A stretch of 64,000 nt of DNA from Promethearchaeota archaeon. Lineage in GTDB: Archaea > Asgardarchaeota > Lokiarchaeia > Sigyniarchaeales > SOKP01. The notes below the pieces were generated by a model, which was not told the DNA's origin, did not search any database, and saw only the letters and a program-made list of their open reading frames with translations. Positions 2,830 to 54,454 of this stretch are shown here, piece by piece; the first letter of the stretch is position 1, and each line of letters begins with the position of its first letter. The DNA lies in assembly GCA_019058295.1 (NCBI GenBank), contig JAHPZI010000021.1:128001-192000 (forward strand), written 5' to 3'. The translations under genes were made by a program, and so were the position numbers.

Positions 2830-3471
2830 ATTAGTGAAAAAAGTATAAAAATTTTCGTGACTGGATTTTTTAATTCGGGAAAAAGTACTTTAGTACATAC
2901 GATTGACGACAAAGCTATCCATGTAGAAAAGGAATTAAGCAAAACATTTAATGAAGAAAAAACAACAACTACTACTGGTTTTGATTTGGGAAGACTAGTT
3001 TGGGCTCGTCCAAACTTAAATAACGAAACTGAAGGGGTAATTATGAGTAAGACAGAGTATTTAAGAGATAAAGATGAATATTTGGGATGGCATATAAAAT
3101 ATGTCGAGTTAAAAGGCAGTCCTGGCCAAATGCAATTTTCTACTGTCCGTAAAATTCTAGCAAAGGGAAGCGACGGTGTGATCTTTTTAATTGATGGATG
3201 TGATTTAGCGAATATTGGCAATGCGTTAGTCGTTTTGGAAGAAATCAAAGCAGTTCTAGGTTCAAATATACCAATGCGAATAATTGCTAATAAATCTGAT
3301 AGGGATGACTTTCATGGATGTGAGGTTATTACAAGTATGATTGGTGAAACAGTATATGTGGGTTCTGGTAAATATAATGTAGGTATAAAAGATGCAATTA
3401 TTGAAGTACTTAAGACAATTTTATATGGTTTAGACCAAAATAAAATTTCAAAAGAGAGTGTGGTAGCTTAA
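2830..3471 (+). CDS. MglA/CvnD-like small GTPase
   Basis: G1 GFFNSGKST, G2 TTTGFDLG, G3 GSPGQ, G4 NKSD. Proposed ATT start at 2830 (SEKSIKIFVTG) after a GAGGAG SD; track start 2857 truncates strand beta1. Confidence 0.85.
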   Translation: MSEKSIKIFVTGFFNSGKSTLVHTIDDKAIHVEKELSKTFNEEKTTTTTGFDLGRLVWARPNLNNETEGVIMSKTEYLRDKDEYLGWHIKYVELKGSPGQMQFSTVRKILAKGSDGVIFLIDGCDLANIGNALVVLEEIKAVLGSNIPMRIIANKSDRDDFHGCEVITSMIGETVYVGSGKYNVGIKDAIIEVLKTILYGLDQNKISKESVVA

Positions 3472-3472
3472 A

Positions 3473-3925
3473 ATGGCTAACTTAAAAGAAAAACAAATTG
3501 TACAGATTCTGAAAGATTTTAGAGGAAGGACAAACATTCTATGTTCTATTTTACTCAATGAAGATGGTTTGATTATTGCATTAGATCAAGCTCAAATGAA
3601 CGAAGATGATGAGTATCATTTATCTTTCAGTGCAATTTGCTCTGGTATTGTTGCATTAGCAGAAAATGGTATTGAAACGATAAAAGAGGAAAATAATGTT
3701 AAAAAAATATCAATTCAAGCGGGAGAACAATTAGATAAGGAGGGATTTACAATTATTCTTCAATCGGTCACAAAAAATATTAAACTATCGATAATGTTTC
3801 CAACGTACTTGAATTTCGGTGTAATTCTTTTTGAATTAAATCAAACAATTCAAAGATTATCGGAGTATTTTTCAATTCCTGAACAAATCAAAAATCTCGA
3901 TGGTGTCAGTACATTAATGCAATAA
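3473..3925 (+). CDS. Roadblock/LC7 (MglB-like) protein
   Basis: ILCSILLNEDGLIIA...FSAICSGIVALAE; translationally coupled to the GTPase (TAA-A-ATG). Confidence 0.85.
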   Translation: MANLKEKQIVQILKDFRGRTNILCSILLNEDGLIIALDQAQMNEDDEYHLSFSAICSGIVALAENGIETIKEENNVKKISIQAGEQLDKEGFTIILQSVTKNIKLSIMFPTYLNFGVILFELNQTIQRLSEYFSIPEQIKNLDGVSTLMQ

Positions 3926-4061
3926 ATTAAAAGATTTATCACTTTAAAAAAAAGTTATTTGTAAAATTAAGGATTACAAACCAAAAGCAAATGTCTCAAG
4001 TTCAATTTATAATTGAAAATTATGAAAAAGATTTTATGAAACTCAGTAGAGAGGTTTTCTC

Positions 4062-5525
4062 GTGGTAATACGTCAATGTATCGTTAATAATATTAATGAA
4101 AAGAATATAAATAAATTTCTGATAGAGAGATTAAACCATAATAATCCTTTAGTACGAAGAAATGCTGCCTTAGAAATAGAAAATCAAGGTATCTTAATCG
4201 CAATTACTCCATTATTAAGTACATATTTTCCTGGATCTTCATATATAATTCCTCGTATAATCGGAAAAATAGGGAAGAAAAATATAAAACTCTTACTTAA
4301 AATTGCAATGAATAATTATAATGGAACGAGAATGCGGCAATATGCTATTGAAGGATTAGGAAAAATTGGAGATAAAAAGATACTAAATAATTTATACTTA
4401 CTTTTAAAGAGTGATGATGTTTATATTAGGAAAAGTTGTATATTAGCACTGGGAGACATTAGGGATAAAAATTCTGCTGGAAAGTTATTATATTTATTAG
4501 ATATAGAAGTTGATTGGATTAAACCCTATATTATTTGGTCACTTGGAAAATTAGGTGATTTAAATTGTTTAAATAAACTAATTGAAATGTTATCCATAAA
4601 AAATTTAAATTTCATCACTAAGAAAATAATTATTAAAGCATTAGGATGGATTGGAGATAAAAGAGCGGTAAAAAAGCTCATTGAACTTTTAAATGAAAAA
4701 AATTCAGGTTTAGAGGATTATATTCTATTTGCTTTGGAAAACATAGGTGATACAAAAGTATTACCAATTTTAATAAAAAATTACTTGAAACCTATATGGT
4801 TTTTAAAGGAACACAATAAATGCATAATAAATAAGTTATCTCCTCAATGGAGAAATTTATTAAACAATTATGATTTAAAAATTTACAATAGAGAAGACTT
4901 ACCTCCACATTTTTATACAAACATCAATAATGAGGATGATTGGTTTTATGGTTGTTTAAACAAATCTCATTACATCTTAAATTCTCAGAAAAAAATCATT
5001 GGTTGTTTAAATTTAATTTATTTAATAAATTATGAGAAAGTTATTCTTTTTTATATGGATACAATTGAAATAAAAGAAGAATTTCGCCGTCAAAAGATAG
5101 GAACAGAATTAGTTAATCAAGTCATTAATGAAATTAAAAAGAAATTCGAGAGATTTAATATCTTTTTGTTAGTTGCAAAATGTAAGCAATATAAATTAAA
5201 ATTTTTTAGTACATTAGGATTTATACCTATAAAATTAAGAAAAACAGGGGTAGGTGCACATTGTATCATGAGTTATCCATTTACAGAAGATTCAGAAAGA
5301 AATTGTAAAAGATTGTTTGAATATTTTTGTTGGAGAGAAGAAAAAAAGGAGATTATCTCATCAGATTGTAAATATGCGTATAATCCCAATCCAACTGGTC
5401 TATATTGGTGTAAAAAAAAAATGATTTATGTTACAGGGTTAGAAAAAAAAAAATGTCCATTCTATATTAAAGAAAAGGAAATAATTAGTGAGAAGAAATT
5501 TTTTGATTTAAAAGAGTTTTTCTGA
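4062..5525 (+). CDS. HEAT-repeat / GNAT acetyltransferase / Cys-rich domain fusion
   Basis: Repeated ALGxIGDxxA HEAT (PBS-lyase type) units; GNAT motif A IEIKEEFRRQKIGTEL and KFFSTLGF; C-terminal DCKY...WC...CPFY. Confidence 0.75.
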   Translation: MVIRQCIVNNINEKNINKFLIERLNHNNPLVRRNAALEIENQGILIAITPLLSTYFPGSSYIIPRIIGKIGKKNIKLLLKIAMNNYNGTRMRQYAIEGLGKIGDKKILNNLYLLLKSDDVYIRKSCILALGDIRDKNSAGKLLYLLDIEVDWIKPYIIWSLGKLGDLNCLNKLIEMLSIKNLNFITKKIIIKALGWIGDKRAVKKLIELLNEKNSGLEDYILFALENIGDTKVLPILIKNYLKPIWFLKEHNKCIINKLSPQWRNLLNNYDLKIYNREDLPPHFYTNINNEDDWFYGCLNKSHYILNSQKKIIGCLNLIYLINYEKVILFYMDTIEIKEEFRRQKIGTELVNQVINEIKKKFERFNIFLLVAKCKQYKLKFFSTLGFIPIKLRKTGVGAHCIMSYPFTEDSERNCKRLFEYFCWREEKKEIISSDCKYAYNPNPTGLYWCKKKMIYVTGLEKKKCPFYIKEKEIISEKKFFDLKEFF

Positions 5526-5600
5526 TAGATTTAGTTTGAAAAAAAGGGTCACTTTTGGTGGTTTAATATACTGAAGGAAGAAAGGATTAATTTTGAAAAT

Positions 5601-6254
5601 TTGGTAAATAACGTTAACATAGAATGCCCAATATGCAAGACAATGAAAGTGTTAAAAATTCCATTAAAAATTATAAATCAGAGTAAGCAACTTACTACTG
5701 TGTCTGTACCAATAGGATTAGTGTGCAAACATAATTTTCAAGCTTTCATAGATAAAAATTTTAAAGTGAGAGGATATCAAAAAGTTGATTTTCATTTTTC
5801 AAAAATGGAATTTTATGAGGGAGGCATCAACTCTACTATTTCTGACTTAGAAAATGAACAAAAAGTAGAAGAACAATTGATTCAGCTCAGTTCAAAGCCA
5901 ATATTTATTGAAATTTTAAAACTTTTAAGAACTTATGTAGATGATGAGGATATTTTAGGAAGTGCTCTCTTTACATTAGAAGGAAAGGTATTATATTCAT
6001 CCTTACCATTGATGACATTAAATAATATAATTAGAGAATTTGAAATTAGAAATCAGAAGGAATTAATTCAAGTAGAAAAACTTTTTCTGGTTTTAACTAA
6101 TAAACAGAAAATATTCTCGCAATTTCTTGAGATTAGGGGTTATTCTCTTATTATAACTTTAATTTTTTCAAAAAAAATTCAATTAGGTATGGGAGATTTA
6201 CACTTAAGGGAATTAATAAAAAAAATATTAAAAATTAATCCATGTATGAATTAA
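5601..6254 (+). CDS. Zn-binding N-terminal domain plus Roadblock/profilin-like C-terminal domain
   Basis: CPIC...VCKHNFQAFIDKNFKVRGYQKVD (shared with 40161-40700); C-terminal ILGSALFTLEGKVLYSS. Confidence 0.6.
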   Translation: MVNNVNIECPICKTMKVLKIPLKIINQSKQLTTVSVPIGLVCKHNFQAFIDKNFKVRGYQKVDFHFSKMEFYEGGINSTISDLENEQKVEEQLIQLSSKPIFIEILKLLRTYVDDEDILGSALFTLEGKVLYSSLPLMTLNNIIREFEIRNQKELIQVEKLFLVLTNKQKIFSQFLEIRGYSLIITLIFSKKIQLGMGDLHLRELIKKILKINPCMN

Positions 6255-6324
6255 TAAACGAGGGAAAGAAGATATATTAAATCAAATAGAGCTATTAAAT
6301 GGATAAAAATGAAATGATAATAAA

Positions 6325-8160: not shown

Positions 8161-8200
8161 ATTAAAAAAAATATGTGTTATTGAGATTAAGGCAAAATAG

Positions 8201-9100: not shown

Positions 9101-9141
9101 ATATAATGAAATTTTAAATTAAATAAAAACTATTAGTTTAT

Positions 9142-9417
9142 TTATTTCCTTAAAGCTTTTTCATCAATTTTTCCAATCACATTTAAAGGTAAATTATCGG
9201 AAATTTCAATTATTTTAGGTAACTTGTATTTAGCTAAATTGTCTTGAGCGTATTTTAAAATATCTGCTTTTGTCTCTTCATTATTCTCGTATCCTTCTTT
9301 CAAAAGTACATAAAATTTGACAATTTCGGAGCTTGAACGATCTGGATTGGGTAATCCCTCGCATTCACAAAGCTCAATTGGAGGATGTATATTGTATACT
9401 ATTTTTTTAAGTTTCAA
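9142..9417 (-). pseudogene. Remnant C-terminal domain of an acyl-CoA synthetase (AMP-binding_C)
   Basis: HPPI...LAKYKLPKIIEISDNLPLNVIGKIDEKALR; there is no room for the large N-terminal domain. Confidence 0.7.
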
Positions 9418-9465: not shown

Positions 9466-9855
9466 CTATTTATTCATAGAAATCTGAGGTTTTTTTATCC
9501 TTAGTGCCTTTTCAATGTTCTCTATTAATTTTTTATTTGAAAAAGGTTTCGTTTTAAAGCACAAAACTCCAATAGAAAGTGCAATTTCCTTAATGGTAGT
9601 ATCGGCACTTGCGAATATTATTTTTGCCTCACTATTGATACTAAGAATCTCTTTTGAGGCTTCAATTCCGCTCTTAATAGGCATTCGATGGTCCATTATG
9701 ATAATATCTGGCTTTATGGGGAAATTTTTATACATTTCTACTGCTTCCTTTCCATTTTTAGCAGTGCCAATAACATCAAAGCCAGAGGCTCTCAGCAATA
9801 TCTCATATAATTGCAGTATTGCTAATTCATCCTCAACAATAAAGATAGATGCTAT
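9466..9855 (-). CDS. Single-domain response regulator (CheY-like receiver)
   Basis: IFIVEDE acidic pocket (upstream of track start 9798), PDIIIMDHRMP, FASAD, KPF. Needs an ATA start at 9855. Confidence 0.9.
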   Translation of the reverse strand: MASIFIVEDELAILQLYEILLRASGFDVIGTAKNGKEAVEMYKNFPIKPDIIIMDHRMPIKSGIEASKEILSINSEAKIIFASADTTIKEIALSIGVLCFKTKPFSNKKLIENIEKALRIKKPQISMNK

Positions 9856-9856
9856 T

Positions 9857-13490: not shown

Positions 13491-13492
13491 AA

Positions 13493-18783: not shown

Positions 18784-18908
18784 GAAAAATTATAAATATT
18801 CAAATTTATATTTAAATAATAGATATTCTGATTATTCATTAAGGAAGAAACTATTATCGTGTTAATTGATCTAATTTAATTATATAAACATACTATAAGT
18901 CTTTAAGA

Positions 18909-19244
18909 ATGAATGAATTAACTAAAGCTACATCAGAGTTTTTAAAAGCATTAAGTGATCCAATTAAATTAGAAATTATTAAATATTTAAAAAATGGTGA
19001 AAAATCAGCTAAAGACATTGAAAATATACTAAAGATTAGTCAATCATATACATCTCAACAATTAAAACAATTAGAGAGAGCAGAGATAATTTTACATAAA
19101 AGAGAAGATGGTATAAAAATGTATTTCATTAAAAACACCAATATTTATCGTGTTATCTCAACAATTAATTCATATATAATTGAACAACATAAAAAGAAAT
19201 TTCAAAAGTTAATAGATTCTGATAATATTGAGAAATTAAAATAA
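18909..19244 (+). CDS. ArsR/SmtB-family transcriptional regulator
   Basis: FLKALSDPIKLEII...SQSYTSQQLKQL...REDG..MY. Confidence 0.88.
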   Translation: MNELTKATSEFLKALSDPIKLEIIKYLKNGEKSAKDIENILKISQSYTSQQLKQLERAEIILHKREDGIKMYFIKNTNIYRVISTINSYIIEQHKKKFQKLIDSDNIEKLK

Positions 19245-19281
19245 TAAAAAAACCTTAAATCCCCTATTTTTCATATCAATT

Positions 19282-19824
19282 ATGTCGAAAAACATTAGAC
19301 GCCCCTTTAGAAAAATTTTAGTGTTAGGTCTTGACAATAGTGGTAAAACATCAGTAGTGCTTAATTTTATTGGGAAAATTAATTTAACTAATTTTATCAC
19401 TCCAAAAGCAACGGAAAAAGTGAATATTGTTAACTTTGAAAAGGATAATTTTAAATTTGAAATATTGGATTTTGGAGGAAAAGAAGTTTATAGAAATGAA
19501 TTTCTAAAAAAATTTAATGAATATATTACAGATACAAAAGAAATTTTTTATGTAATTGATATTCAGGATTATGAAAGGTATGATCTCGCATTGAATTTTT
19601 TAAAAGAAATAATAAAAAGGTTAAACTCAATTAATTATGAGATAGAATTTACGTTTTTTCTTCATAAATTCGATAATGATATATTTAACCTCACCCCCAA
19701 TATAAATGATGAGCTAATTGATGACTTAGTAGAGAAAATAAAAAATATCGTACCTTCTGACGAATTTAATGAAATTTATAAAAGTACAATATATACTGTT
19801 TTAGATAAAATTCATGTATATTAA
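19282..19824 (+). CDS. Arf/Rag-like small GTPase
   Basis: GLDNSGKTS, DFGGKE, YVID, HKFD. Confidence 0.85.
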   Translation: MSKNIRRPFRKILVLGLDNSGKTSVVLNFIGKINLTNFITPKATEKVNIVNFEKDNFKFEILDFGGKEVYRNEFLKKFNEYITDTKEIFYVIDIQDYERYDLALNFLKEIIKRLNSINYEIEFTFFLHKFDNDIFNLTPNINDELIDDLVEKIKNIVPSDEFNEIYKSTIYTVLDKIHVY

Positions 19825-26631: not shown

Positions 26632-27096
26632 TTAACGAACAATTAAAACATCACATGATGCGTGTTCTAATGCTTTCTCAGCAACTGATCCCATAAGAAA
26701 CTCTTTTAATTTTGAATGTTCACCTTTATATCCTAATACAACAAGGTCAAATCCTTCTTCCTCTACAACTTTTTTAAGATATTCTGCAGGGTTTTCATCT
26801 TTTATTAATCTAGTTTCTACTTTAGCCATAGAAGAGCCAAAAATTTCTCGAGCATTATTTAATATAGTTTTTCCTTCTTCAATTTTTGTTCTTTCAATAT
26901 CTGAAGAACTCATTGCTGGGTAATGACTTGCTGTTGGCATTATGGAGAGTACTGGTACATTCTCAAAAAACTTATGCTTAATTGCATGGAAAATGACGAC
27001 CTTTCTTGGCCATTTTTCTTCAATTTCTCTAATTTTTATAACTGCTCGCATAGAATCTTCAGATCCATCAACACCAATCAAAATTTTCTTATAAAT
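26632..27096 (-). CDS. Universal stress protein (UspA family)
   Basis: YKKILIGVDGS, DLVVLG, MGSVAEK...CDVLIVR. Proposed ATT start at 27096 after an AGGTGA SD. Confidence 0.9.
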   Translation of the reverse strand: MYKKILIGVDGSEDSMRAVIKIREIEEKWPRKVVIFHAIKHKFFENVPVLSIMPTASHYPAMSSSDIERTKIEEGKTILNNAREIFGSSMAKVETRLIKDENPAEYLKKVVEEEGFDLVVLGYKGEHSKLKEFLMGSVAEKALEHASCDVLIVR

Positions 27097-33221: not shown

Positions 33222-34022
33222 TTGAAGGATTATAATTTTTATATTGGGGTGGATGCGGGAGCATCTTTTTGTAAAGCAATTGCTTTAAATTCGAAGAATA
33301 ACGAAATTAAAGCAAATTCAATCACTTTTGTCCTTGGAAATCCTGAAAAAGCAGCAAATAAGTGTTTAGATGAAATAGGAAAGAAATTAAATGTGAAATT
33401 AAAAATTTTAAAAAAAAATGTAATTACTACAGGACAAAATGGGGATAAGATTAGAATTGGACAAAATAAATCCGAAATAATATGCATTGGGAGAGGAGCC
33501 TATGCACTCGATCCTAATATAAGAATTATGGTGGATGTTGGGAGCTTTAGCATGAAAGTATTAAAAATAGATGAATCTGGAATAATCAAAGATTATCTTA
33601 TGAACAATAAATGCGCTGCAGGATCAGGAGTCCTATTAGAACTCGTTGCTGAAGGCTTAGAAATGAGAATTGACGAATTAAATAATAAAGCATTTCAAGC
33701 AAAAAAGCCAATTCAGATTTCAAGCCAATGTAGCATTTTTGCTGAATCTGAGGTAATTTCTTATAAGAATGAAGGAGCAAATATTCCTGATTTAGTTGCA
33801 GGGGTGTGTAATTCTGTAGCAGGTAGAATTTATCCCTTAATTCGGATGATTGATAAAGAAACAAATAAAGTAGCTTTTAGTGGAGGGGTCGCTAAAAACA
33901 AATATATAGCTGAAAATCTTGAGGAACGATTAGGATTTAAATTGGTCAAATTATCACTTGAACCAGAATATATAGCTGCATATGGAGCTGCAATTATAGC
34001 AAAAGAGGGAGGGGGAACATAA
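33222..34022 (+). CDS. CoA-substrate-specific enzyme activase, variant subunit (HgdC/BzdP-like)
   Basis: GVDAG, NNKCAAGSG, CSIFAESEVI, SGGVAKN; ATP-site motifs divergent (TGQNG, DVGSFS). Confidence 0.85.
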   Translation: MKDYNFYIGVDAGASFCKAIALNSKNNEIKANSITFVLGNPEKAANKCLDEIGKKLNVKLKILKKNVITTGQNGDKIRIGQNKSEIICIGRGAYALDPNIRIMVDVGSFSMKVLKIDESGIIKDYLMNNKCAAGSGVLLELVAEGLEMRIDELNNKAFQAKKPIQISSQCSIFAESEVISYKNEGANIPDLVAGVCNSVAGRIYPLIRMIDKETNKVAFSGGVAKNKYIAENLEERLGFKLVKLSLEPEYIAAYGAAIIAKEGGGT

Positions 34023-34023: not shown

Positions 34024-34806
34024 ATAGTATTTGCGGGAATTGATATAGGGTCTCTCACAGGTAAAGCATTATTGTTAGAAGATAGTGAGATCCGTGGATT
34101 TAAAATAATTAGGGTAAAAAAAACTCCCGTTGAAACTGCTGAAAGTGTTTTTGAAATGGTTTTATCCGAGACGGGGATAAATAGGGATAATGTAAAATTT
34201 GTGGTTAGTACAGGTTACGGGAGAGATAATATTCCCTTTTCTAATAAAAGTATGACAGAAATCACATGCCATGGGTTAGGTGCCCATTTTCTAATACCAA
34301 GCATTCGGACGATAATTGATATAGGGGGTCAGGATTGTAAAGTAATCGCCGTAGATCGAACGGGTAAATTAGTTGAATTTGCAATGAATGAGAAATGCTC
34401 CGCAGGCACGGGAAGATATCTCGAAATAATGGCCAATTTACTCCATATTTCACTCGATGATCTTGGGACTTTATCATTGAAGAGTAAAACTCCTGTTCAA
34501 TTGAAAAGTACTTGTAGTATTTATGCTCAAGCCGAGGTATTGCAATGTATCAATTCTGGATTTAAGAAGTCTAATATAGCTGCGGGAATTAATAAAGCTA
34601 TGGCTGAGCGCGTTTATTCCATGTCAAAAAAAGTTAAGATGAGACCAGATGTGGTTATTTCTGGAGGTGTAGCTAAAAATGCTGGTGTTGTCGGTTATCT
34701 GGAAGAAATGATAGGAATCGAATTCTTAAAATTACCAATTGATCCTCAAATTATTGGTGCTCTTGGAGCTGCTGTAATTGCTCAAGAGAGGTATAAAAGA
34801 AAGTGA
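34024..34806 (+). CDS. CoA-substrate-specific enzyme activase (HgdC/BzdQ-like)
   Basis: GIDIGS (upstream of track start), TGYGR, EITCH, DIGGQD, NEKCSAGTG. Needs an ATA start at 34024. Confidence 0.9.
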   Translation: MVFAGIDIGSLTGKALLLEDSEIRGFKIIRVKKTPVETAESVFEMVLSETGINRDNVKFVVSTGYGRDNIPFSNKSMTEITCHGLGAHFLIPSIRTIIDIGGQDCKVIAVDRTGKLVEFAMNEKCSAGTGRYLEIMANLLHISLDDLGTLSLKSKTPVQLKSTCSIYAQAEVLQCINSGFKKSNIAAGINKAMAERVYSMSKKVKMRPDVVISGGVAKNAGVVGYLEEMIGIEFLKLPIDPQIIGALGAAVIAQERYKRK

Positions 34807-34952: not shown

Positions 34953-37223
<2,271 letters not shown>

Positions 37224-37410
37224 TGGTTTAATAGGCTCCCTGGTATCAGCAGCATCCCCAGACTTGGTAATATTGATATAAATAAAACTACAGGCGTATA
37301 GAAAAAAAAGTAGATAATTCCATTTTAAAATTACATTTTTTTTTATTAACTAGGAAGAAAATATAAATTGTAAGCAATTCAATTTATTAGGAACACTAAA
37401 GTAGTGAAAT

Positions 37411-37905
37411 ATTATATATCAATCCGAGAAAAACTCTGATCTCCCAGAAGAAGGATCTAGTAACTCTGAACTAGAAAATAATGAGCCTGAAAATTTAAAT
37501 AAGGAGGATGAGAAAGAGCGCAATAAATATGTCAGAGGATTATATTTTACTGGGGGTATCATTTGTTTAAGTTTAGGAATTATAGGAATACTTTTACCTA
37601 TTTTACCTACTACCCCTTTTCTTTTACTTGCCGCAGGATGCTTTTCTAGAAGTTCTAAAAGATTTTATAATTGGTTATTAAACAACAGGATTCTTGGCTC
37701 ATATATTAGAAACTTTAGAGAAGGAAAAGGAATGCCTATAAAAGTTAAAATTTTTACAATTTCTATGTTATGGATAACAATTCTTTTAACATCGTTCATT
37801 TTTATTCAAATTATATGGATTAGATATGTACTAATCATCATTGCTATTGCTGTGACAATTCATATTATTTTAATTCGCCCAAAAAAAAAAAAGAGTAAAA
37901 GTTAG
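37411..37905 (+). CDS. YbaN/DUF454-family membrane protein; not in ORF track
   Basis: LGIIGILLPILPTTPFLLLAAGCFSRSSKRFYNWLL..LGSYI. In-frame stops at 37402/37405 and no ATG/GTG/TTG before the domain; ATT at 37411 or ATA at 37414. Confidence 0.8.
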   Translation: MIYQSEKNSDLPEEGSSNSELENNEPENLNKEDEKERNKYVRGLYFTGGIICLSLGIIGILLPILPTTPFLLLAAGCFSRSSKRFYNWLLNNRILGSYIRNFREGKGMPIKVKIFTISMLWITILLTSFIFIQIIWIRYVLIIIAIAVTIHIILIRPKKKKSKS

Positions 37906-40065: not shown

Positions 40066-40160
40066 AATTGAATTAAGGAAAAATTAGTTTAAAATTATTA
40101 GATATCAATAATTTACGACTTTTTAACTTTGTTTTTAAAAATATAAATAGTGATTTATTT

Positions 40161-40700
40161 ATGTTGAAAGATTCGTATGCAAATTCAGATATAAGTGAAA
40201 TTGATATTTCACATGAAGTTAAGATTGTAAATGTTATATGTCCTCTTTGTAAATCCAAAAAAGAAATTACTGTTCCAGTAACAATTATCAACCAAACAGG
40301 TCTAACAACAGTATCTATACCTAAAGATTTAGTTTGCAGCCATCATTTTCAAGTTTTCATTGATAAGCAATTTAAGGTTCGGGGTTATCAAAAAGTAGAC
40401 CTTGATTTGGCTCTTAATAAAAATAAGGAGTCTAATATTGATAATTTCAATAAAAAAGATGACGAGCTTTTCGAAAATCTAATTCTAGAAGGCAATTACC
40501 TTGAATATAATCCAAAGAAGGTAAAAAAGATACATATAAATAGTGAACCTGAAAAAATTGTATCCAATGAGGAAAAGGTAATGACTCTTAAAGAAATATA
40601 CGAAGAATTTTGGGAATTCATAGATGATGATAATCCTGAATTTAAAGAGTATATCATAAAAGATAAAAAGAGAAGACAAGGAGTAAAAAGAAGGAATTAA
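40161..40700 (+). CDS. Zn-binding domain protein, paralogue of 5601-6254
   Basis: CPLC...VCSHHFQVFIDKQFKVRGYQKVD. Confidence 0.7.
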   Translation: MLKDSYANSDISEIDISHEVKIVNVICPLCKSKKEITVPVTIINQTGLTTVSIPKDLVCSHHFQVFIDKQFKVRGYQKVDLDLALNKNKESNIDNFNKKDDELFENLILEGNYLEYNPKKVKKIHINSEPEKIVSNEEKVMTLKEIYEEFWEFIDDDNPEFKEYIIKDKKRRQGVKRRN

Positions 40701-43307: not shown

Positions 43308-44333
43308 ATGATCGAAAAATCTGCTGAAATAATGGTAAATGTTGAAAATTTAAATGTTAAATTCGGAGACAAACAAGTTGTTCATAATGTATCTTTTCAA
43401 GTGAAATCCGGAGAAATAATCGGTTTATTTGGTATCAGCGGTGCTGGTAAAACAACAATTATACGAGTACTTACGTGCCAGCTCAATAAAAAGAACTGGA
43501 ATGGTAACGTAAAAGTCACGGATTTAAATCCCGCACAAAGTAAAAATCATCCGAAAATCTTAAGCAATATTGGATATGTTCCTCAACTTGAAGGACTCAA
43601 TCTTTACTATGAGTTGTCACCTATGACGAATGTAGAAATATTTGCATCAACATATGGATTGAAAAAAAAAAATGCGAAAGAAATAGCAAAAGAACTATTT
43701 TCGATACTTGACATTCCAGAAGATACTTGGAAAAAACGGCTAAAAAAATTAAGCGGAGGAGAAAAAAAGAGAGTTTCCGTAGCGATTGGTTTAATCCATC
43801 AGCCTAAAATTCTATTTCTTGACGAGCCTACGACTGGTGTTGATGCCGCAAAAAGATATGAAGTTCTTTCATATTTAAAAAAGTTAAATCGAAAATTAGG
43901 GACGACAATGTTTCTTATTACACACGATATGGAGGCAGCTTTAATATGTGATAAAAGCGCGATTTTGAGAGATGGAAAATTATTAGAATTCGATTCTAAT
44001 GATAATCTCATAGCATCACTCCCGAGTGGTGGCTTATTAACTAGATTAACTATTGAAGATCTTACTGAGAATAAAATAAAAATTATTAAAAATTTTACAC
44101 CCGTACAAAAAACTATACGTGTAGGAAATGAAATAATTGAAGTGTTTATTGAGGATTTTGAAGAAAACCTTCAAAAATTAATTGAATATACGATAAAAAA
44201 CAATTTAAAAGTTACGTCCATGAGTAAGGATAATGCTACTTTTAGAAGGTATTTCCAGATTAGAATCCAAGAAGAAGAGGAGAAAGAAAGGACATTAAGA
44301 GAAAGCGTACAGATAATGGAAGGTGAGGCATAA
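43308..44333 (+). CDS. ABC transporter ATP-binding protein
   Basis: GISGAGKTT, GYVPQ, LSGGE, LFLDEPTTG, ITH. Confidence 0.93.
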   Translation: MIEKSAEIMVNVENLNVKFGDKQVVHNVSFQVKSGEIIGLFGISGAGKTTIIRVLTCQLNKKNWNGNVKVTDLNPAQSKNHPKILSNIGYVPQLEGLNLYYELSPMTNVEIFASTYGLKKKNAKEIAKELFSILDIPEDTWKKRLKKLSGGEKKRVSVAIGLIHQPKILFLDEPTTGVDAAKRYEVLSYLKKLNRKLGTTMFLITHDMEAALICDKSAILRDGKLLEFDSNDNLIASLPSGGLLTRLTIEDLTENKIKIIKNFTPVQKTIRVGNEIIEVFIEDFEENLQKLIEYTIKNNLKVTSMSKDNATFRRYFQIRIQEEEEKERTLRESVQIMEGEA

Positions 44334-47300
44334 TAGAGAATAAAGCAAAACGAAAATTAAAAATATTATTATTATTATCAGCATTATTCGCTTTACAAAT
44401 TACCATTTTAGCTGTAATAAACTATCCTTGGATAAAATATTATGATGATGATGAACTTCAAGATTTGAAAGAAGATATGATGGAATTTTCATATTCACAC
44501 AAAAATTCTGATTCTGATCTTTTTATTGAACCTGAAATCGACGCAAACTTCCGTGCAATTGATTCAATTGATTTTTCTCAGGTTAATCCATATTTAACCG
44601 ATTTAATTTCTCCTAGGTCAATTAGTTATATTAAGGATTATGATGAGTTCTTTTTTGATTATTTATTTGAAAAACAGAACAATAATGGTTCATTTTCTGA
44701 TATTGGTGGGTTAGGCAACATGTTTTCAACTTATGAGGTAATAGAAATTATAGATTTATTAAATCCTACTTATTTTTATTTAAAATCCGATGAAATTGGG
44801 AAAATTTTAACTTATATCCAAAATTGTCTTGTAGAGAATGGATGGGGTTTTAAATATAATGAATACGCCCCTTTACCCGATATTATATCTACATATTGTG
44901 CAATTCATATGGCTAATATATTTAACGCCAAATCCATTCTTAGTAATCCAAATATTACTAATTATGTAGAACTAAGCACTTGGGCTGGTGAACCTGTTGA
45001 GCAATTGTATTATAGAATTAAAGCTTATTTAGAATTAGGGCAAAAATTCAATCAATTTCAAAATGATACTATTGCAAATTATCTTAAGAGTCTTAGAAAC
45101 ATCGATGGTGGATACTCTAACGTTGGAGGAGCCAACGTTCAATCTACTTTTTATGCATTATCATCAATGTATAGTTTAAATATTATGCCAGATGAAGCTA
45201 ATGAAACACTTCAGTTTGTCCTTAATTGTGGGAAGTTAGATGGAGGTTTTGGATCAGATCCTTATTTGAACAGTAGTTCAGATTTTACATCTGGATGGGC
45301 TGCCATGAAATCAATAGATTTACTCAAAGATAAGGTTAATTTACCAGGTGTGAATATCGAAACCTATATTCAAAATTATTATAACTGGTTATACACCCAT
45401 CAAGCAAAGAACGGATTATTTGGGCAAACTTCACTTGAAGCAAATTATTTAGGAGCATTATCGATATATCTCGTCGAGCCTGATAATTTTACTGATTATG
45501 TTGATATAGATAATATGTGGGACTATGTTGAAGATTGTTATAATAAAGGAGATGGAGGGTTTAGCTCTCAACCTGGTGGAAGTACAAGTTTATTAGCAAC
45601 TTATCATGCAATTAATCTTTATGAAATATTACTTATTTATTCAGATATTTCTCTTCCTGATAGAAAAGATATCATTGATTATTTAGTTGATCTTCAAGAT
45701 GATGATGGAGGATTTGAATTAGGGATTGATATAAATGAAATTATGTCACTTTTTGGACCATTAAGTCAAATGTTTACAGATCTAATTGAACCAGATGCAC
45801 CAACTATTGAAAGTACATATTGGGGTGTAGTATCGCTAAAAATTTTAGATGCTTTGGATAAGATAGATGAGGAAAATTTAATTCATTGGATTTCAGCAGC
45901 CCAAAGCGCTGATGGGGGTTTTCCAATAGTTTTAGGGTTTCATAGCGACACTATTTCAACTTATTTTGGATTAAAAACTTTAAAAATTTTAAAAATAGAA
46001 CCTATGTCAACAATTGCGGCAATAGAATTTTTGAAAAAAGCCCAAGATGAAGATGGAAGCTTTGTTCCGATCCCTGTAATCTCAGATCTTTTTGAGTTTC
46101 CATCGACATTTTTCGTATCATATTTCGCAGCAATGGGACTATACGAATATGATTTTCAACCAGAAAATATTGAAGATTTAATTGATTGGTACGAAGATTG
46201 TCTCAGTTCTAACACAGGAGGAATTGGAGACTTTCCTATGTTTGGTGGAGATTTAAGAAATACTCCATATGGTATAATGCTCATTGAAGAATTAAGTTAT
46301 GACCAAAGTTTTAACCCAAAACCTTGGAACGATTTAATTACTTCAATCTTTATTATAGAAATTTTAATATTACTTTTATTTGGCATGCTAAAGATTATTT
46401 CCTTATTAAATGTAACAGTTTCCAAAAAATTGAAAGAAAGATTTGGAGTCGGTGAAAAATATAATATATCATATTTGGAAAAGTTCCCAGCCATTTTATG
46501 CGATAGTGTAAATATTTTTGCTGGTAGAAAGTTAATAGTTGAGTCTGTGTCGATGAAATTAAAGCATGGAGAAATTTTAGGAGTCTTAGGAGAGAGTGGT
46601 GCTGGTAAGTCAACATTTGTAAAATCACTTTTAGGAATGCGAAAATATAATGGAAAAATTCAGATTTATGGTATGAATGTCAAGAAGAAACATAAGAAGA
46701 TGCGACCAATTTATGGTTATGTCCCCCAAGATCTTGGTAAAATTTACCTAAATTTCACGACTTTGCAAAATATAATGTATTTCGGAAAGCAATACGATAT
46801 GACAGAGAAATTGATTATGCAAAAAACAAAGCGGATATTAACCGCTTTAGAAATTGAAGATAAAATGCATGAAAAGGTTAAAAATTTATCTGGTGGTCAA
46901 AAAAGACGTGTATCCATTGCTATGGCATTAATTCATGATCCTATTATCATTTGGATGGATGAACCGACTAGTGGATTGGATCCAGTTGTGAGGGAAAATC
47001 TTTGGCTAGCATTGACTAAAATTAATGAACAATTTAATTCAACCTTAATAGTTGTAACTCATTATCCTGAAGAATCTCAATTTTGCCACCGCGTTGCCAT
47101 ATTTGGGAGAATGAGAGGGATGATAGATTATGGCCGTCCTAAAGATTTATTAGCTCAATTACCAGGTAAAGGAAGAACTGTAGACTTATATTTTAATGAG
47201 GTAAATGAAAATGCGATTGAAAGGCTCGAATCCATTGAAGGTATTGATAAAGCTCTTGAAAATAAAGCGGGAACTGATTTTTCTTTACTTTCCGATTTGA

Positions 47301-47431
47301 ATATAAACTCGATAGAAGAAAAAATTAAATTAAATTTTGGTAATGATTCTATTAAAGATATAAATCAGAACGATACAAAGATGGAACAATATTTTAGATA
47401 TAAAGCGATGGAGGTTCCAAAATTAGAATGA
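44330..47431 (+). CDS. Signal anchor - prenyltransferase/squalene-cyclase-like repeat ectodomain - TM - ABC ATPase fusion
   Basis: Frame extends upstream of 44465 to ATA 44330/44333, adding KRKLKILLLLSALFALQITILAVI. About 9 QxxDGGF..STYxA repeats, one TM, then GESGAGKS, LSGGQ, WMDEPT. Confidence 0.8.
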   Translation: MIENKAKRKLKILLLLSALFALQITILAVINYPWIKYYDDDELQDLKEDMMEFSYSHKNSDSDLFIEPEIDANFRAIDSIDFSQVNPYLTDLISPRSISYIKDYDEFFFDYLFEKQNNNGSFSDIGGLGNMFSTYEVIEIIDLLNPTYFYLKSDEIGKILTYIQNCLVENGWGFKYNEYAPLPDIISTYCAIHMANIFNAKSILSNPNITNYVELSTWAGEPVEQLYYRIKAYLELGQKFNQFQNDTIANYLKSLRNIDGGYSNVGGANVQSTFYALSSMYSLNIMPDEANETLQFVLNCGKLDGGFGSDPYLNSSSDFTSGWAAMKSIDLLKDKVNLPGVNIETYIQNYYNWLYTHQAKNGLFGQTSLEANYLGALSIYLVEPDNFTDYVDIDNMWDYVEDCYNKGDGGFSSQPGGSTSLLATYHAINLYEILLIYSDISLPDRKDIIDYLVDLQDDDGGFELGIDINEIMSLFGPLSQMFTDLIEPDAPTIESTYWGVVSLKILDALDKIDEENLIHWISAAQSADGGFPIVLGFHSDTISTYFGLKTLKILKIEPMSTIAAIEFLKKAQDEDGSFVPIPVISDLFEFPSTFFVSYFAAMGLYEYDFQPENIEDLIDWYEDCLSSNTGGIGDFPMFGGDLRNTPYGIMLIEELSYDQSFNPKPWNDLITSIFIIEILILLLFGMLKIISLLNVTVSKKLKERFGVGEKYNISYLEKFPAILCDSVNIFAGRKLIVESVSMKLKHGEILGVLGESGAGKSTFVKSLLGMRKYNGKIQIYGMNVKKKHKKMRPIYGYVPQDLGKIYLNFTTLQNIMYFGKQYDMTEKLIMQKTKRILTALEIEDKMHEKVKNLSGGQKRRVSIAMALIHDPIIIWMDEPTSGLDPVVRENLWLALTKINEQFNSTLIVVTHYPEESQFCHRVAIFGRMRGMIDYGRPKDLLAQLPGKGRTVDLYFNEVNENAIERLESIEGIDKALENKAGTDFSLLSDLNINSIEEKIKLNFGNDSIKDINQNDTKMEQYFRYKAMEVPKLE

Positions 47432-49179: not shown

Positions 49180-49191
49180 ACATAAAAAAAT

Positions 49192-50016: not shown

Positions 50017-50033
50017 GGCAAAAAAAAAAGAAT

Positions 50034-51398
50034 TTACTTTTCTTCTGATACTTTTACAAATTTAAGGACCAATAGTCCCAGTAGCATAATAATCCCCATA
50101 GCAAGTAAACCTAAACCCCACGCGTATTTACCAATCACATCAGCACTCAGTAAAATAGCTCCAAAAATTATAGGCCCTAAGGATGCCGATGCCTTTCCAC
50201 TTATGCTTGTAAAGCCAAAATACTCCCCAAATTTTTCTTTAGGTGAGATCCTTGTCACCATGATTCTGTTTGCGGTCCAAGTGCCCCCAAGTGCGGGTCC
50301 AGCGACGACCCCCATTATAATACTAAGCATGAAAGGATAATTTAAGCCAATATCGATATAACGAAAGGCAAAAATTAAATAAATACCTAATATCAGAGAG
50401 ATTGCCCATAAAAAGCATACTAAATAAAAGCAAATTTTTGGACCATGTTTTTCTCCAAACTTTCCAACGAAATAAGTAAAGATTACAGCTGAAAATGTTG
50501 CTATTATTATGAAAAGCACACCAAATATATCAGAAGCTTTACCTCCTGTTCCAATAATAAGACCATCAGTTATAAGAGGCATCATAAAGATAACTAAAGT
50601 CTGTGCGATATTACCAATTAAAAAATACGCAAATATATAGATGACCATTGGTTTATGTTGTTTTATATCCTTAAGTGTGGCTTTTAATTGTCTGAAGGAA
50701 TCACCAATTCTTTTACCAACGGGAGGAATTTGTCCTGTTTTTTGTTTTTCACGAACTATGAAAAATGGAATCATCAGAACGAGAAAAAGAACCATGGGTA
50801 AAACAAATGTTATCCAATAACCAGCGTAACCGTATGAAAGATCTCCTTGAGTTGGATCACTTACGACATCACCCCACATAATCATTAATGGTAGCAGAAC
50901 AATTAAAGAGATAATAGTACCAAAATATCCCCATGCAATCCCAAACCCAGAGACTTTTCCTATATCTTCTTTTTTAGCAATAAAAGGAATCATGGCATCG
51001 TAGAAAATCAGACTTAATTGATAAGAAACATTCGCAAGGACGTAAAAGATTAGTACAACGATTAGACTATGGAAAAAACCGAGTAGACTCGCAAAAAGAA
51101 TGCAAAGTCCGCCCAAACTTATAACATACGGTTTCCGTTTCCCACTTTGATCACCAAAGGCGCCAACGATAGGAACTGTAATCGCTAATCCTGCTTGCAT
51201 AAGACCTTGAACAAGCCCAAAAATAAAGCTTGCTTGACCATAAGTTATTCCATCTTCCAGCTGAGCAATGACCATTATATATCGAAAAATGATTAAGCTT
51301 ACAATTACCATTGAATAAATCGTATTTGCCAAATCATACATAGCCCAGAAAAATACATTTTTTTTATCAGTTTTAGTTTCTACTTCCACTTCATTCAT
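50034..51398 (-). CDS. MFS transporter (UMF1/Atg22/BtlA-like)
   Basis: WAMYDLANTIYS, GAFGDQSGKRK, YDAMIP, GKVSGFG.AWGY.G, GEYFGF. Confidence 0.88.
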   Translation of the reverse strand: MNEVEVETKTDKKNVFFWAMYDLANTIYSMVIVSLIIFRYIMVIAQLEDGITYGQASFIFGLVQGLMQAGLAITVPIVGAFGDQSGKRKPYVISLGGLCILFASLLGFFHSLIVVLIFYVLANVSYQLSLIFYDAMIPFIAKKEDIGKVSGFGIAWGYFGTIISLIVLLPLMIMWGDVVSDPTQGDLSYGYAGYWITFVLPMVLFLVLMIPFFIVREKQKTGQIPPVGKRIGDSFRQLKATLKDIKQHKPMVIYIFAYFLIGNIAQTLVIFMMPLITDGLIIGTGGKASDIFGVLFIIIATFSAVIFTYFVGKFGEKHGPKICFYLVCFLWAISLILGIYLIFAFRYIDIGLNYPFMLSIIMGVVAGPALGGTWTANRIMVTRISPKEKFGEYFGFTSISGKASASLGPIIFGAILLSADVIGKYAWGLGLLAMGIIMLLGLLVLKFVKVSEEK

Positions 51399-51502
51399 AT
51401 TGAATCATCTTACGGTATTTCTAATTTAAAAATATGGTTTAATTTATTTAAAGATGATAATAAAAAAAAGAAATTAAATAATGAGAAAACTATAATTATT
51501 TA

Positions 51503-52654
51503 ATGGAGTATAATCTAAGAGATTTTTTTCTTCCACCATTATTCATATCGTTGGGGCTTGGTTATCAAATTTTCATATATTTTTTATATCAATATTATAA
51601 GGCTAAAAAAGAGAAATTAGAATTTACTGAAATTTTACTAGCTTATGGATTAATATTTGGATTAACTCTAACAGGATTTTTCATTCGTATAATAAATCTT
51701 TATTATACAAGAGAAATTAATATTGAAATCTTTCATTTCTTAACGAAAATAACTTTTCTTATCCTTTATTCAGCTTTAATGTTGTTTTTCATTATAATAT
51801 CAACCAAATCCTTCCAAAAAATCATAAACTCAATTTTTACAAAAATTTTAGCAATTTTATTAATTATACCAATGATTACAGTCTTTTTATTTCAACCTGA
51901 AAACCTTTTATTTGGTCTCATTTCTGGAATAACTCTCGGGATATCATATTCATATATCTTTTATTTTCATACTAGACTGATTAAAATTTCTACAGGTGAT
52001 ATAAAAAAAAGATTAAACCTCATACTTTTAGGATTAACATTATGTGCGATACAACATTTTATTGGAGGATATTTCCCCAGTTATGTATTATTTAAAGGTT
52101 ATAGTGAGCACCTTCAATTAATTTCTGCTCCAATATTTGTTTGTGGATTAATTATTGTTTTTTTAGGCGTTTTTAGATTTCCCGCCTTTCTTGAATTTGG
52201 ATGGAAAGAATCTCTACTATATGTTTTTATTATAAATCAAAGTAATTTAAAAGTAATTTACACATTTGATTTCAAAGAAATCATAAATCAACGTGGAAAA
52301 CCAATAAATAAACTTTCGGATATCAATGAAATTAAGCAGTTTTTTTCAAGCGGGATTATTGGAATCAATAAGATTATATCAGGTATAACAAACTCAAAAT
52401 CTGAATTTATTGAATCAATTAGACAAAAAGATTTCATAATTCTTTTGAATCGTGGAGATGAGCCTCAATCTTATATAATTTATTGTATATTAGTTAGTAA
52501 AGATATGAACAGCCTTAGATATTTTTTAAAAACAATTAAAAAGGAATTTGAACAGATCTATAAAAATATACTCATTAATATGAATGATCTAGAAGGCAAA
52601 GAAGAAAAAATATTCTCAAATTTTGATGCGATTATGAAAAAATTAATTGAATAA
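51503..52654 (+). CDS. Seven-TM membrane protein with a C-terminal longin-like domain
   Basis: Seven hydrophobic helices, then WKESLLYVFII...FFSSGIIGINKIISGI...IESIRQKDFIILL...LKTIKKEFEQIY. Confidence 0.7.
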   Translation: MEYNLRDFFLPPLFISLGLGYQIFIYFLYQYYKAKKEKLEFTEILLAYGLIFGLTLTGFFIRIINLYYTREINIEIFHFLTKITFLILYSALMLFFIIISTKSFQKIINSIFTKILAILLIIPMITVFLFQPENLLFGLISGITLGISYSYIFYFHTRLIKISTGDIKKRLNLILLGLTLCAIQHFIGGYFPSYVLFKGYSEHLQLISAPIFVCGLIIVFLGVFRFPAFLEFGWKESLLYVFIINQSNLKVIYTFDFKEIINQRGKPINKLSDINEIKQFFSSGIIGINKIISGITNSKSEFIESIRQKDFIILLNRGDEPQSYIIYCILVSKDMNSLRYFLKTIKKEFEQIYKNILINMNDLEGKEEKIFSNFDAIMKKLIE

Positions 52655-52663
52655 GAAAAATTT

Positions 52664-53752
52664 ATGGGTATTAAATTGATTTTAAATGAATTCCCTATAA
52701 AAGGACCCTTAAAAGAACCATTATTAGTATTAGAATCATTAATAGTTTTTTCTTTTATAGAACTGGCAGTTATATTTTGGATGAGAATTAGAAAAAGTGA
52801 ATTAAAAAAATCACTGGAAAAAGGATATATCTGGTTATTTCTTGGTTATTCTCTTTTGAGGTTTTTTACAATAGTTGGGGATTATTATGTTGATGGTTTT
52901 CATTTTAGAACTTTATTTTTAAATGTAGGCTATTTAATTCAAATGGCATTTTTAATTAATTTTGTAAGAATTATGGAAAATTACAAAGTTTTTATTAGAA
53001 AATACTTATTTACTAAGATTTGTTTGGTTTTAATTTTTATTTATTTCATAGTTTTATTCATTGATAGTAATTATGTGATCTTTTTTTTAATTTCATTTTG
53101 GATATTTTTTTTAGTATTCTTTATAATTTATTTGAAGGATTTAGGATCAAAATTTAATAATAAAATAGATTTAAGAAGTTTTAAACTAAATTTGCTTAAA
53201 TTTTATATAGGAATGATTTTAATAGTTGTAGGATCTGCTACAACTATGGACTTTGTGATCGAGATTTTTGGATTTGGTATCCGCCTTATAGGAAATATCC
53301 TTCAACTAATTGGGGTAATTTTTATTTCATTTTTCTTTTTTTCTATTCCTTCTTATAGTGAATATGATTGGCAAGATAAAATTATTAGCGTTTTTATAAT
53401 GCATAAATCTGGTCTTTTTATCTATAAAAAGTCTTTTAGAGAAAAAGCCTCTCCAATTGATGAATCAGTCATTACAGGTGCATTGACAACTATAGAAATG
53501 ATGTTAGAAAAAGTAAGCCACATTGATAGTATTTCTATAATTAAAAAGAAAGAAAAAATTCTAATTTTTCAACCAGGGAGATTTATTTATGGGGTTTTAA
53601 TATGTGAGGAAGAGTTAGAATCCCTTAAAATTTTATTGAGTAAATTTATTAGTAAAATTGAAACAATTTATTCTAATGTTCTTGAGGATTGGGATAGAAA
53701 TTTAAATGTTTTTACGCCAATTGAAGGCATCGCGAAGGAAATTTTTTATTAA
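52664..53752 (+). CDS. Seven-TM membrane protein with a C-terminal longin-like domain
   Basis: Seven hydrophobic helices, then WQDKIISVFIMHKSGLFIYKKSF...VITGALTTIEMML...IIKKKEKILIF. Confidence 0.72.
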   Translation: MGIKLILNEFPIKGPLKEPLLVLESLIVFSFIELAVIFWMRIRKSELKKSLEKGYIWLFLGYSLLRFFTIVGDYYVDGFHFRTLFLNVGYLIQMAFLINFVRIMENYKVFIRKYLFTKICLVLIFIYFIVLFIDSNYVIFFLISFWIFFLVFFIIYLKDLGSKFNNKIDLRSFKLNLLKFYIGMILIVVGSATTMDFVIEIFGFGIRLIGNILQLIGVIFISFFFFSIPSYSEYDWQDKIISVFIMHKSGLFIYKKSFREKASPIDESVITGALTTIEMMLEKVSHIDSISIIKKKEKILIFQPGRFIYGVLICEEELESLKILLSKFISKIETIYSNVLEDWDRNLNVFTPIEGIAKEIFY

Positions 53753-53914
53753 TAGCAAAATTTTCAATCAGAAATATTATTTCAGTTATAAGAATTATGG
53801 ACTTTAAAATATGGTTAATAAAAACAAGTATTACTTATCAATAAATATTAAATTTTTAAATAAAAATCAATATTAGAAATATGAGTACAATTTAAGAGTT
53901 CTTGGAGGATAACT

Positions 53915-54454
53915 ATTTCATCGGATTATTCTTTTAAAATCTGTATATTTGGAGATACGGGAGTTGGGAAAACCTCTTTAATTTCTAGATATCTAGGTGA
54001 ACAGTTCGAAAAAGATATTGGAAAAGATATGGAAAGATCAATGGGAGTGGATATTAATCATAAAAATATAGTAGTAGATGATATAAAGGTTTCATTGCAG
54101 ATATGGGATTTAGTAGGTGAGGAACGATTTAGAACTATGTTACCTTTTTATTTACGTGGATCATCTGGTGGTATTTTCATGTATGACACTACTCGGGAGG
54201 AAAGTTTGAACAAGATAGATGAATTGCTTAATATATTTAAGGAAAGTAATGCTGGAATGCAGGTTCCAATTATAATGGTTGGAGGAAAATCAGATCTTCA
54301 GGAAATGAGAACTGTTTCTATTAAAAAAGCGGATAGTATCTCAAAATCCCATGATTTTTATGATTATATTGAATGCTCTTCTAAAACGGGGGAAAATGTT
54401 GAGTTCTTATTCAATACACTAACTAGACTAATTTTAAAGAAGATTGGTTTGTAA
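53915..54454 (+). CDS. Rab-like small GTPase
   Basis: FKICIFGDTGVGKTS (upstream of track start 54029), LQIWDLVGEERF, GGKSDL, ECSSKTGENV. ATT start at 53915 after a GGAGG SD. Confidence 0.9.
   Translation: MSSDYSFKICIFGDTGVGKTSLISRYLGEQFEKDIGKDMERSMGVDINHKNIVVDDIKVSLQIWDLVGEERFRTMLPFYLRGSSGGIFMYDTTREESLNKIDELLNIFKESNAGMQVPIIMVGGKSDLQEMRTVSIKKADSISKSHDFYDYIECSSKTGENVEFLFNTLTRLILKKIGL

Follow-up and report, generated by a model that had tools for sequence, protein, structure and literature searches.

Initiation at codons that differ from AUG in the third position is known from several systems. AUU starts in bacteria are rare and regulatory, as in infC, with a further AUU start in Escherichia coli pcnB, while ATA, ATT and ATC are routine starts in the mitochondrial and Mollicutes-type codes (NCBI tables 2, 4 and 5). 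Here we examine such starts in a 64-kb window (the whole stretch of DNA analysed, G000:C21:128001-192000) from an uncultured member of the Promethearchaeota (Lokiarchaeia), in which an earlier note had placed the starts of at least seven genes at ATT or ATA, and we extend the analysis to the genome and family from which the window comes. Sequence comparisons indicate that ATT, ATA and ATC (collectively AUH, as distinct from the canonical starts ATG, GTG and TTG) are very probably genuine near-cognate starts in this genome and its family, served by an ordinary initiator tRNA with anticodon CAU that tolerates the third-position mismatch.

The known systems resemble this one only in part. Bacterial infC and pcnB are one or two regulatory genes, whereas here some 6–9% of ordinary genes appear to be involved, and NCBI table 11 lists ATT, ATA and ATC as rare starts, whereas their estimated frequency here is one to two orders of magnitude higher. 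Mitochondrial and Mollicutes-type sets likewise combine AT-rich genomes with common AUH initiators, but in several mitochondrial codes AUA also stands for Met internally, whereas internal ATA is Ile here; unlike mitochondria, moreover, the organism is a free-living archaeon whose relatives carry the full aIF1/aIF2 machinery. Near-cognate starts as such are known from infC, and full-text literature searches returned no description of ATT/ATA initiation in Asgard archaea. Judged by the literature found, the novelty lies in the scale reached in a free-living archaeon, in the distribution at the level of the family and in the link to the aIF1 gene.

The genome bin (G000) comprises 3.2 Mb in 30 contigs, has a G+C content of ~31% and is 79% complete. 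Its same-genus relatives include G001 (LW40_45) and G007, of which a 72-kb contig is colinear with positions 13.5–56 kb of the window. The sister family is represented by, among others, G032 (Ca. Harpocratesius repetitus) and G038 (Promethearchaeum syntrophicum MK-D1), the latter entering the comparison for aIF1 only.

Results

Seven predicted ATT or ATA starts in the window

All seven ATT or ATA codons proposed in the earlier note were found at their coordinates and on their strands. Each has an in-frame stop 1–10 codons upstream, and in all seven genes the conserved N-terminal elements precede the first canonical start, with no ATG, GTG or TTG between the stop and the conserved sequence. A match of at least four bases to GGAGGTGA lies 6–11 nt upstream of every site. 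Three Shine–Dalgarno (SD) sequences had been named in advance, and all are present: GAGGAG (2815–2820), 9 nt ahead of ATT 2830 in a P-loop GTPase gene (2830..3471, forward strand); AGGTGA (27108–27103), 6 nt ahead of ATT 27096 in a universal stress protein (USP) gene (26632..27096, reverse strand); and GGAGG (53904–53908), 6 nt ahead of ATT 53915 in a Rab/Ras-like small GTPase gene (53915..54454, forward strand), where ATA 53909 is a possible alternative. The other four genes would start at ATA. A single-domain response-regulator receiver (9466..9855, reverse strand) begins at ATA 9855, ten bases from GGAG (9869–9866), and a BcrAD/BadFG-type ATPase, or dehydratase activase (34024..34806, forward strand), begins at ATA 34024, eleven bases from GGAGG (34008–34012); both follow the stop of the upstream gene in the arrangement TAA-A-ATA, which the earlier note had described correctly for two sites, together with a TAA-A-ATG of the same geometry at 3469–3475. 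A YbaN/DUF454 membrane protein (37414..37905, forward strand) lies 6 nt behind GTGA (37404–37407), and a membrane-anchored prenyltransferase-repeat/ABC ATPase fusion (44333..47431, forward strand) lies 6 nt behind AGGTGA (44321–44326), its ATA joined to the upstream stop as TAATA with a one-base overlap. Five of the starts stand as first proposed, while comparison with relatives narrows the other two, given earlier as 37411/37414 and 44330/44333, to ATA 37414 and ATA 44333.

Domain boundaries agree with these positions. A Pfam domain starts at or near the proposed codon in five of the seven genes: Response_reg at residues 4–114 of the receiver (profile 1–110), Usp at residues 2–154 of the USP (profile 2–141), BcrAD_BadFG at residues 5–253 of the activase (profile 2–271), Ras at residues 8–174 of the Rab-like GTPase (profile 1–161) and DUF454 at residues 42–156 of YbaN (profile 1–113). 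GTPase profiles match the 2830 protein from residue 4–8. The N-terminus of the ABC fusion has no Pfam match and is the weakest case by homology, its support coming from comparison with G007.

Orthologue alignments revealed both exchanges and conservation at the proposed codons, with ATG replacing ATA or ATT in the activase, YbaN and USP genes and ATT or ATA being kept in the Rab-like GTPase, the 2830 GTPase and the ABC fusion. For the activase, the codon aligned exactly with ATA 34024 is ATG in the G007 orthologue (79% identity; M-V-F-A-G-I-D-I-G-S), and some fifteen relatives at greater distance also begin canonically at this position. Where the window's YbaN gene reads ATT-ATA, the orthologues in G006 and G003 read ATT-ATG, which identifies ATA 37414 as the likely start, and G007 keeps ATT-ATA. 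Similarly, the USP homologue in G004 has ATG exactly at the ATT 27096 codon (M-Y-K-K-I-L-I-G), while that in G001 presents GGTGA followed by ATT-ATT, without a canonical start. For the ABC fusion, the first ATA is GTA in G007 and ATA 44333 is retained; across the 45 codons preceding the window's first canonical TTG, the differences from G007 are mostly synonymous, as in coding sequence. The ATT of the Rab-like gene is kept in G007 (83% identity) and G004 (62% identity), both lacking a canonical start before the P-loop, and receiver homologues in G003 and G004 offer only ATC or ATA before the acidic pocket. The 2830 GTPase orthologue in G004 (80% identity) keeps ATT-AGT behind AGAGGAG. Overall, conserved upstream coding sequence is strongly supported in the receiver, activase, YbaN and Rab-like genes, moderately in the USP and 2830 GTPase, and by comparison only in the ABC fusion. 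A start model independently picks ATA 9855, ATA 34024 (posterior 0.71), ATA 37414 and ATA 44333.

Contig C300 of G004 carries two copies of the 2830-type GTPase (150-779 and 18815-19447), both 80% identical to the window's gene, one with ATG at a similar position and the other with the conserved ATT.

These alignments bear on whether the genes are instead decaying or N-terminally shortened, with translation from the first downstream ATG, GTG or TTG and the upstream sequence a mere relic. Such a view is easiest to hold for the USP, where a start at TTG 27081 would cost just 5 residues, and for the 2830 GTPase, where a start at GTG 2857 would cost 9; the simple start model prefers the canonical codon at both, and taken alone these two sites are the weaker cases. 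Yet TTG 27081 lies 21 nt from the SD, and GTG 2857 would delete strand beta-1 and is replaced by GTA in G004. Elsewhere the downstream starts would remove essential-looking parts of the protein: the receiver's acidic pocket with TTG 9798, the P-loop and switch I of the Rab-like GTPase with its first ATG (54029), the ASKHA phosphate-1 motif of the activase, and two helices of YbaN, in which the first canonical codon is codon 109 and would leave fewer than 60 amino acids. The upstream parts are conserved between species at 45–83% identity with mostly synonymous change, and the genes affected, ~6–9% of the total, include a TFB paralogue and, in relatives, single-copy aIF1. We consider genuine AUH starts to explain this pattern and relic sequence to be very unlikely.

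Sequencing or assembly errors that turned ATG into ATA or ATT deserve consideration in a 30-contig metagenome bin of 79% completeness, but the same ATT or ATA codons recur at orthologous positions in independent assemblies from other studies (G007, G004, G001/LW40_45, DZ2S.378 and ABR15), and the absence of ATG is likewise implied by orthologue calls in four separate public sources, all of them truncated. Random errors would also have no reason to fall on the third base of start codons preceded by SD sites, and we give an origin in error next to no credence.

The three sites that abut an upstream stop (34024, 9855 and 44333) raise another explanation, in which ATT and ATA starts work solely by termination–reinitiation from the upstream gene and so escape normal start proofreading. 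Against this view, the remaining four (2830, 27096, 37414 and 53915) each lie behind an intergenic spacer with an SD of their own, and aIF1, Rab-like genes and the TFB paralogue likewise start after intergenic sequence. Coupling may help in some operons, but it is unlikely to be the general mechanism, and reinitiation as the sole route is most improbable.

Public annotation shows what happens when such starts are not considered. Prodigal considers only ATG, GTG and TTG (PMC2848648). Orthologues of the Rab-like GTPase in a public protein collection (57–96% identity) are called at 140, 141, 153 or 164 amino acids. In the calls read, the first three forms begin past the P-loop, and the 164-residue form begins within strand beta-1, immediately ahead of it. 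A 181-residue NCBI call begins M-T-I, which corresponds to an ATA start two codons before the ATT, and for this reason ATA 53909 is retained as an alternative to ATT 53915. The earlier note's estimate that standard annotation truncates or misses more than one in ten genes of the window holds up, with seven such genes set beside 51 frames of 100 codons or more that do not overlap one another (~12–13%).

Genome-wide frequency of AUH starts

A lone ATT or ATA soon after a stop means little in this genome, since the two codons make up about 10–13% of triplets and are expected there by chance. Their association with SD sites is more informative. The comparison covered 2,620 long frames and took in-frame codons that precede the first canonical start by three codons or more. 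Of the ATT and ATA codons among them, 3.4% were accompanied by a strong SD spaced as at ATG starts, as opposed to 0.4–1.3% of AAT, TAT, TTA, TTT and AAA, a 3- to 8-fold enrichment. A mixture model based on start codon, SD class and coding/non-coding codon statistics pointed the same way: left free to use all 61 codons, it attributed 69.5% of starts to ATG, 10.9% to TTG, 6.0% to ATT, 3.2% to ATA and 2.9% to GTG, with AAT, TAT, TTA and TTT at ~0, and found an SD at ~28% of starts. SD sequences are described as rare in Lokiarchaea in a 2026 review (PMC12993045). A restricted version of the model assigned 7.5% to ATT, 3.8% to ATA, 1.2% to ATC, none to CTG and 0.7% to all other codons together, a pattern specific to the third codon position (ATT > ATA > ATC, CTG ~0). 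On 400-kb samples the free version was dropped for noise, with spurious TGG and TCA, and the restricted one was used instead. Because the latter gives 5–9% ATT/ATA in sister-family genomes too, we rely on homology-anchored counts.

For these, the genome was compared with 2.4 Mb sampled from eight relatives, and a gene was flagged when 8 or more conserved residues, at 30% identity or better, lay upstream of any canonical start. In a first, loose version of the orthologue test, antisense shadow frames and BLAST extension into leaders had raised the count, and the test was tightened afterwards. Among 836 informative genes, 51 were flagged, 45 of them with ATT, ATA or ATC at the start of the alignment. 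A homology-guided tally, which the earlier note had put forward as a check, thus places 45 AUH starts (26 ATT, 12 ATA and 7 ATC) beside 356 ATG, 79 TTG and 40 GTG. Allowing for false flags, a fair estimate is that AUH codons start about 6–9% of genes, which would make them about as common as GTG.

Further comparisons are consistent with this estimate. Where one partner, the genome itself or a relative, has a canonical start, the aligned codon in the other was ATT, ATA or ATC in 13 of 23 cases (binomial p = 1.5e-6). Three of the genome's 33 small-GTPase paralogues lack a canonical start before the P-loop. In the TFB paralogue, the Zn ribbon (a Pfam match) lies wholly upstream of the first canonical codon, behind GGTGAT-N6-ATT, and a GPN-loop GTPase and an 86-amino-acid ubiquitin-like protein appear to have AUH-type starts as well. 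The MCM_N domain, by comparison, was found in a single gene (contig C30), which has a TTG start directly after a stop. Strong SDs accompany 31% of AUH starts and 10% of ATG starts, the AUH figure being inflated by the rule that selects the candidate with the best SD. Taken together, five independent lines, namely the orthologue swaps, mixture model, homology tallies, GTPase paralogues and truncated public calls, support the earlier proposal that ATT/ATA initiation is systematic in this lineage.

On contig C1 of the genome (~135,770, forward strand), an ACG aligns with a relative's ATG (T-I-F-Q-G-L-F against M-I-F-Q-G-L-F) and is followed by ATC. At least 72 conserved codons precede the first canonical start of this gene, which possibly starts at the ACG or the ATC.

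Distribution across the order

The homology test was applied in the same form to relatives. It flagged 7.3% of genes in the same-genus genome G001, and 10.0% and 7.4% in G016 and G019 of the same family, compared with 1.8%, 2.7% and 1.5% in the sister-family genomes G032, G030 and G050; in G033, from a third family, 2.9% were flagged, none with AUH. The difference between the family (own genome excluded) and the other families is significant by Fisher test (p = 2.8e-4, or 9.5e-6 for AUH cases only), although kinship between genomes means that these values overstate independence. As a quantitative trait, AUH initiation therefore appears family-wide, at 7–10% in three of the four family relatives sampled against ~1–3% in other families of the order. 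G+C contents in the three genomes measured (our genome, G001 and G032) all fall at 28–31%, and since they are similar, AT pressure alone does not explain the difference from G032. The sister family also has single clear cases, such as a MazF-like gene behind GGTGA in G032, and the trait is a matter of degree.

Genetic code and initiator tRNA

AUH starts could also reflect a changed code, in which AUA (and AUU) means Met, or an additional tRNA of initiator type whose anticodon differs from CAU. The tRNA set of the bin leaves some room for this, with a tRNA-Ile(UAU) and a CAU tRNA with an A1:U72 pair in a tRNA block on contig C22, and with the native initiator tRNA gene not found in the 79%-complete assembly, whose sole CAU tRNA is the one in that block and is not initiator-like. 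Internal codons argue otherwise, as internal ATA aligns with Ile in 46.6% and Met in 3.6% of positions in sister-family orthologues, and ATT and ATC behave alike (Ile 47–48%, Met 3–4%). By this measure the elongation code is unchanged, with AUA read internally as Ile and not as Met. In addition, the canonical initiator tRNA (A1, GGG/CCC, CAU) does not vary in its 5' half and anticodon stem-loop between the genus (G007, G005), other family members and the sister family, and an altered initiator tRNA was rejected on this ground. An initiator-like UAU tRNA was likewise rejected: sequences that match such a stem carrying a UAU anticodon also occur outside the family, the one match read in sequence (G003) is an intergenic hairpin, and ARAGORN calls no tRNA there or at the match in G018. 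A new code or tRNA is thus exceedingly unlikely, and an ordinary CAU initiator acting at near-cognate codons is favoured.

The initiator tRNA genes of the genus are interrupted both after the anticodon stem, on the variable-region side, and in the T arm (L161, G007:C174 at ~41.5 kb; L160, G005:C236), and because of these two interruptions ARAGORN misses them; in other family members, introns occupy the D arm instead. The block on contig C22 (G000:C22:30303-33335) is a dense group of ~29 intron-less tRNA genes on both strands that covers nearly all amino acids. Several of these genes encode the CCA end, and the CAU tRNA has a weak anticodon stem, whereas tRNA genes scattered elsewhere in the genome mostly bear introns. 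The block looks like a tRNA array of the mobile-element or virus type.

Predicted start of the aIF1 gene at AUU or AUC in most of the family

Initiation complexes that form on non-AUG codons are destabilised by aIF1 (PMC6237735). The gene for this factor itself starts at ATT or ATC in six genera of the family (g1, g2, g6, g7, g10 and g11) and, as a variant, in a seventh (g9). The layout of the gene consists of AAGGTTGTGA, the TGA of which is the in-frame stop, nine bases, ATT and then AAA-GAC-GA., with the Zn knuckle at codon 9 and no canonical start between the TGA and the knuckle; in three genomes of the window's own genus, ATC replaces ATT. The leader AAGGTTGTGA-N9-ATT-AAA-GAC (L166-L205, L246-L259), in which the SD is a weakened GGAGGTGA, is almost base-for-base conserved over seven genera, so that a weak start site on the fidelity factor's own gene persists across species. 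Elsewhere in the order, aIF1 starts at GTG (g5, g8, g22 and g23), ATA (g17), TTG (Harpocratesius and Promethearchaeum) or ATG (g20 and g24), and outside the phylum it starts at ATG, 3–4 codons before the knuckle, in 64 of 64 archaea examined. Judging by this gene and its conserved start, AUU shows itself sufficient in this family to make an essential protein.

One genome, G047, carries an additional aIF1 copy that starts canonically. We also considered whether aIF1 had been lost or altered. Loss was rejected, since 86 of the 101 genomes of the family carry the gene, as do all six of the other genomes in the genus. The basic loop R-K-W-G is the same in three aligned sequences, one from the window's own genus, one from a different genus of the family and one from the sister family; at the residues of demonstrated importance in P. 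abyssi (PMC6237735) the family shows nothing of its own, and a change in this loop was rejected as a cause.

Other features of the window

At 40077-40700 (forward strand), the sequence upstream of ATG 40161 has an ATA (codon 23 of the frame) where G007 has ATG, and the G007 counterpart has an extra TTG further upstream; this may reflect a longer isoform or a mere conserved leader. The protein of a katG-like catalase-peroxidase gene (34953-37223, forward strand) is 98% identical to that of G007, leader included, while neighbouring genes range from 52 to 97%, which suggests unusually strong conservation or recent exchange.

Discussion

The mechanism that best fits these results is that the ordinary initiator tRNA (anticodon CAU) would initiate at AUU, AUA and, less often, AUC despite the third-position mismatch, frequently with an upstream SD site helping to position the near-cognate codon in the P site. 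Start-codon stringency would then be set lower in this family. Among the possible levers is aIF1; in most of the family its own gene begins with AUU or AUC, and its level would then be tied to the efficiency of AUU initiation.

The design of this gene invites comparison with two known feedback systems. Like infC, which encodes IF3 and has an AUU start behind a ribosome-binding site, aIF1 in this family is a fidelity-factor gene on AUU or AUC and would follow the same logic; the factor here is, however, of the aIF1/eIF1 type and not IF3, and feedback is a hypothesis. Eukaryotic eIF1, a homologue, is autoregulated through an AUG in poor context (Ivanov et al. 2010, as cited in PMC6237735), so that its own start is likewise weak, although the weakness lies in the context of the AUG for eIF1 and in the codon for aIF1 (AUU or AUC, and TTG, GTG or ATA in the sister family). 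Because aIF1 destabilises complexes on non-AUG codons, its AUU start mirrors both infC and the weak-context AUG of eIF1. By analogy, we offer the tentative hypothesis, which is possible but at present rather doubtful, that the family has reset its stringency, with the AUH class as common as GUG, the set point held by an AUU- or AUC-started aIF1, and an AUH regulon rising as aIF1 falls.

Several observations weigh against these readings. All starts, in this genome and in its relatives, are deduced from sequence. Three of nine flagged cases inspected by eye had a usable canonical start, a false-flag rate of about a quarter to a third, and the model-based figure of ~12% must be read as an upper bound, since the same model gives 5–9% ATT/ATA in sister-family genomes in which homology gives 1–3%. 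Of the 45 homology-anchored AUH starts, 26 have no recognisable SD. In G013, which belongs to the same family, none of 42 genes was flagged, albeit in a small sample. With respect to aIF1, a Pfam SUI1 search and a blastn search with the G007 locus did not find the gene in the genome's own assembly, a gap best explained by its 79% completeness. Finally, the start codon of aIF1 as a predictor of genome-wide AUH use was unsupported in six genomes: G016 has aIF1 on GTG and high AUH use, while G030 has aIF1 on ATA and low AUH use.

Most metagenome bins are annotated with callers that ignore ATT, ATA and ATC (PMC2848648), so that several per cent of this family's proteins in databases would be truncated or missing. 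Among the parts lost from public proteins are the P-loops of eukaryote-like small GTPases, which are central to Asgard biology, and missed AUH starts would bias signal anchors, domain architectures and tallies of eukaryotic signature proteins.

For the biology of initiation, a free-living archaeal lineage in which an estimated ~6–9% of starts carry a third-position mismatch would amount to a natural experiment on start fidelity by aIF1 and aIF2, the direct ancestor of the eukaryotic initiation machinery, and the contrast with other families of the order, one of them measured at equal G+C, offers a ready comparative system. If true, the aIF1 feedback hypothesis would provide, in close archaeal kin of eukaryotes, a parallel to the feedback loops of infC and eIF1.

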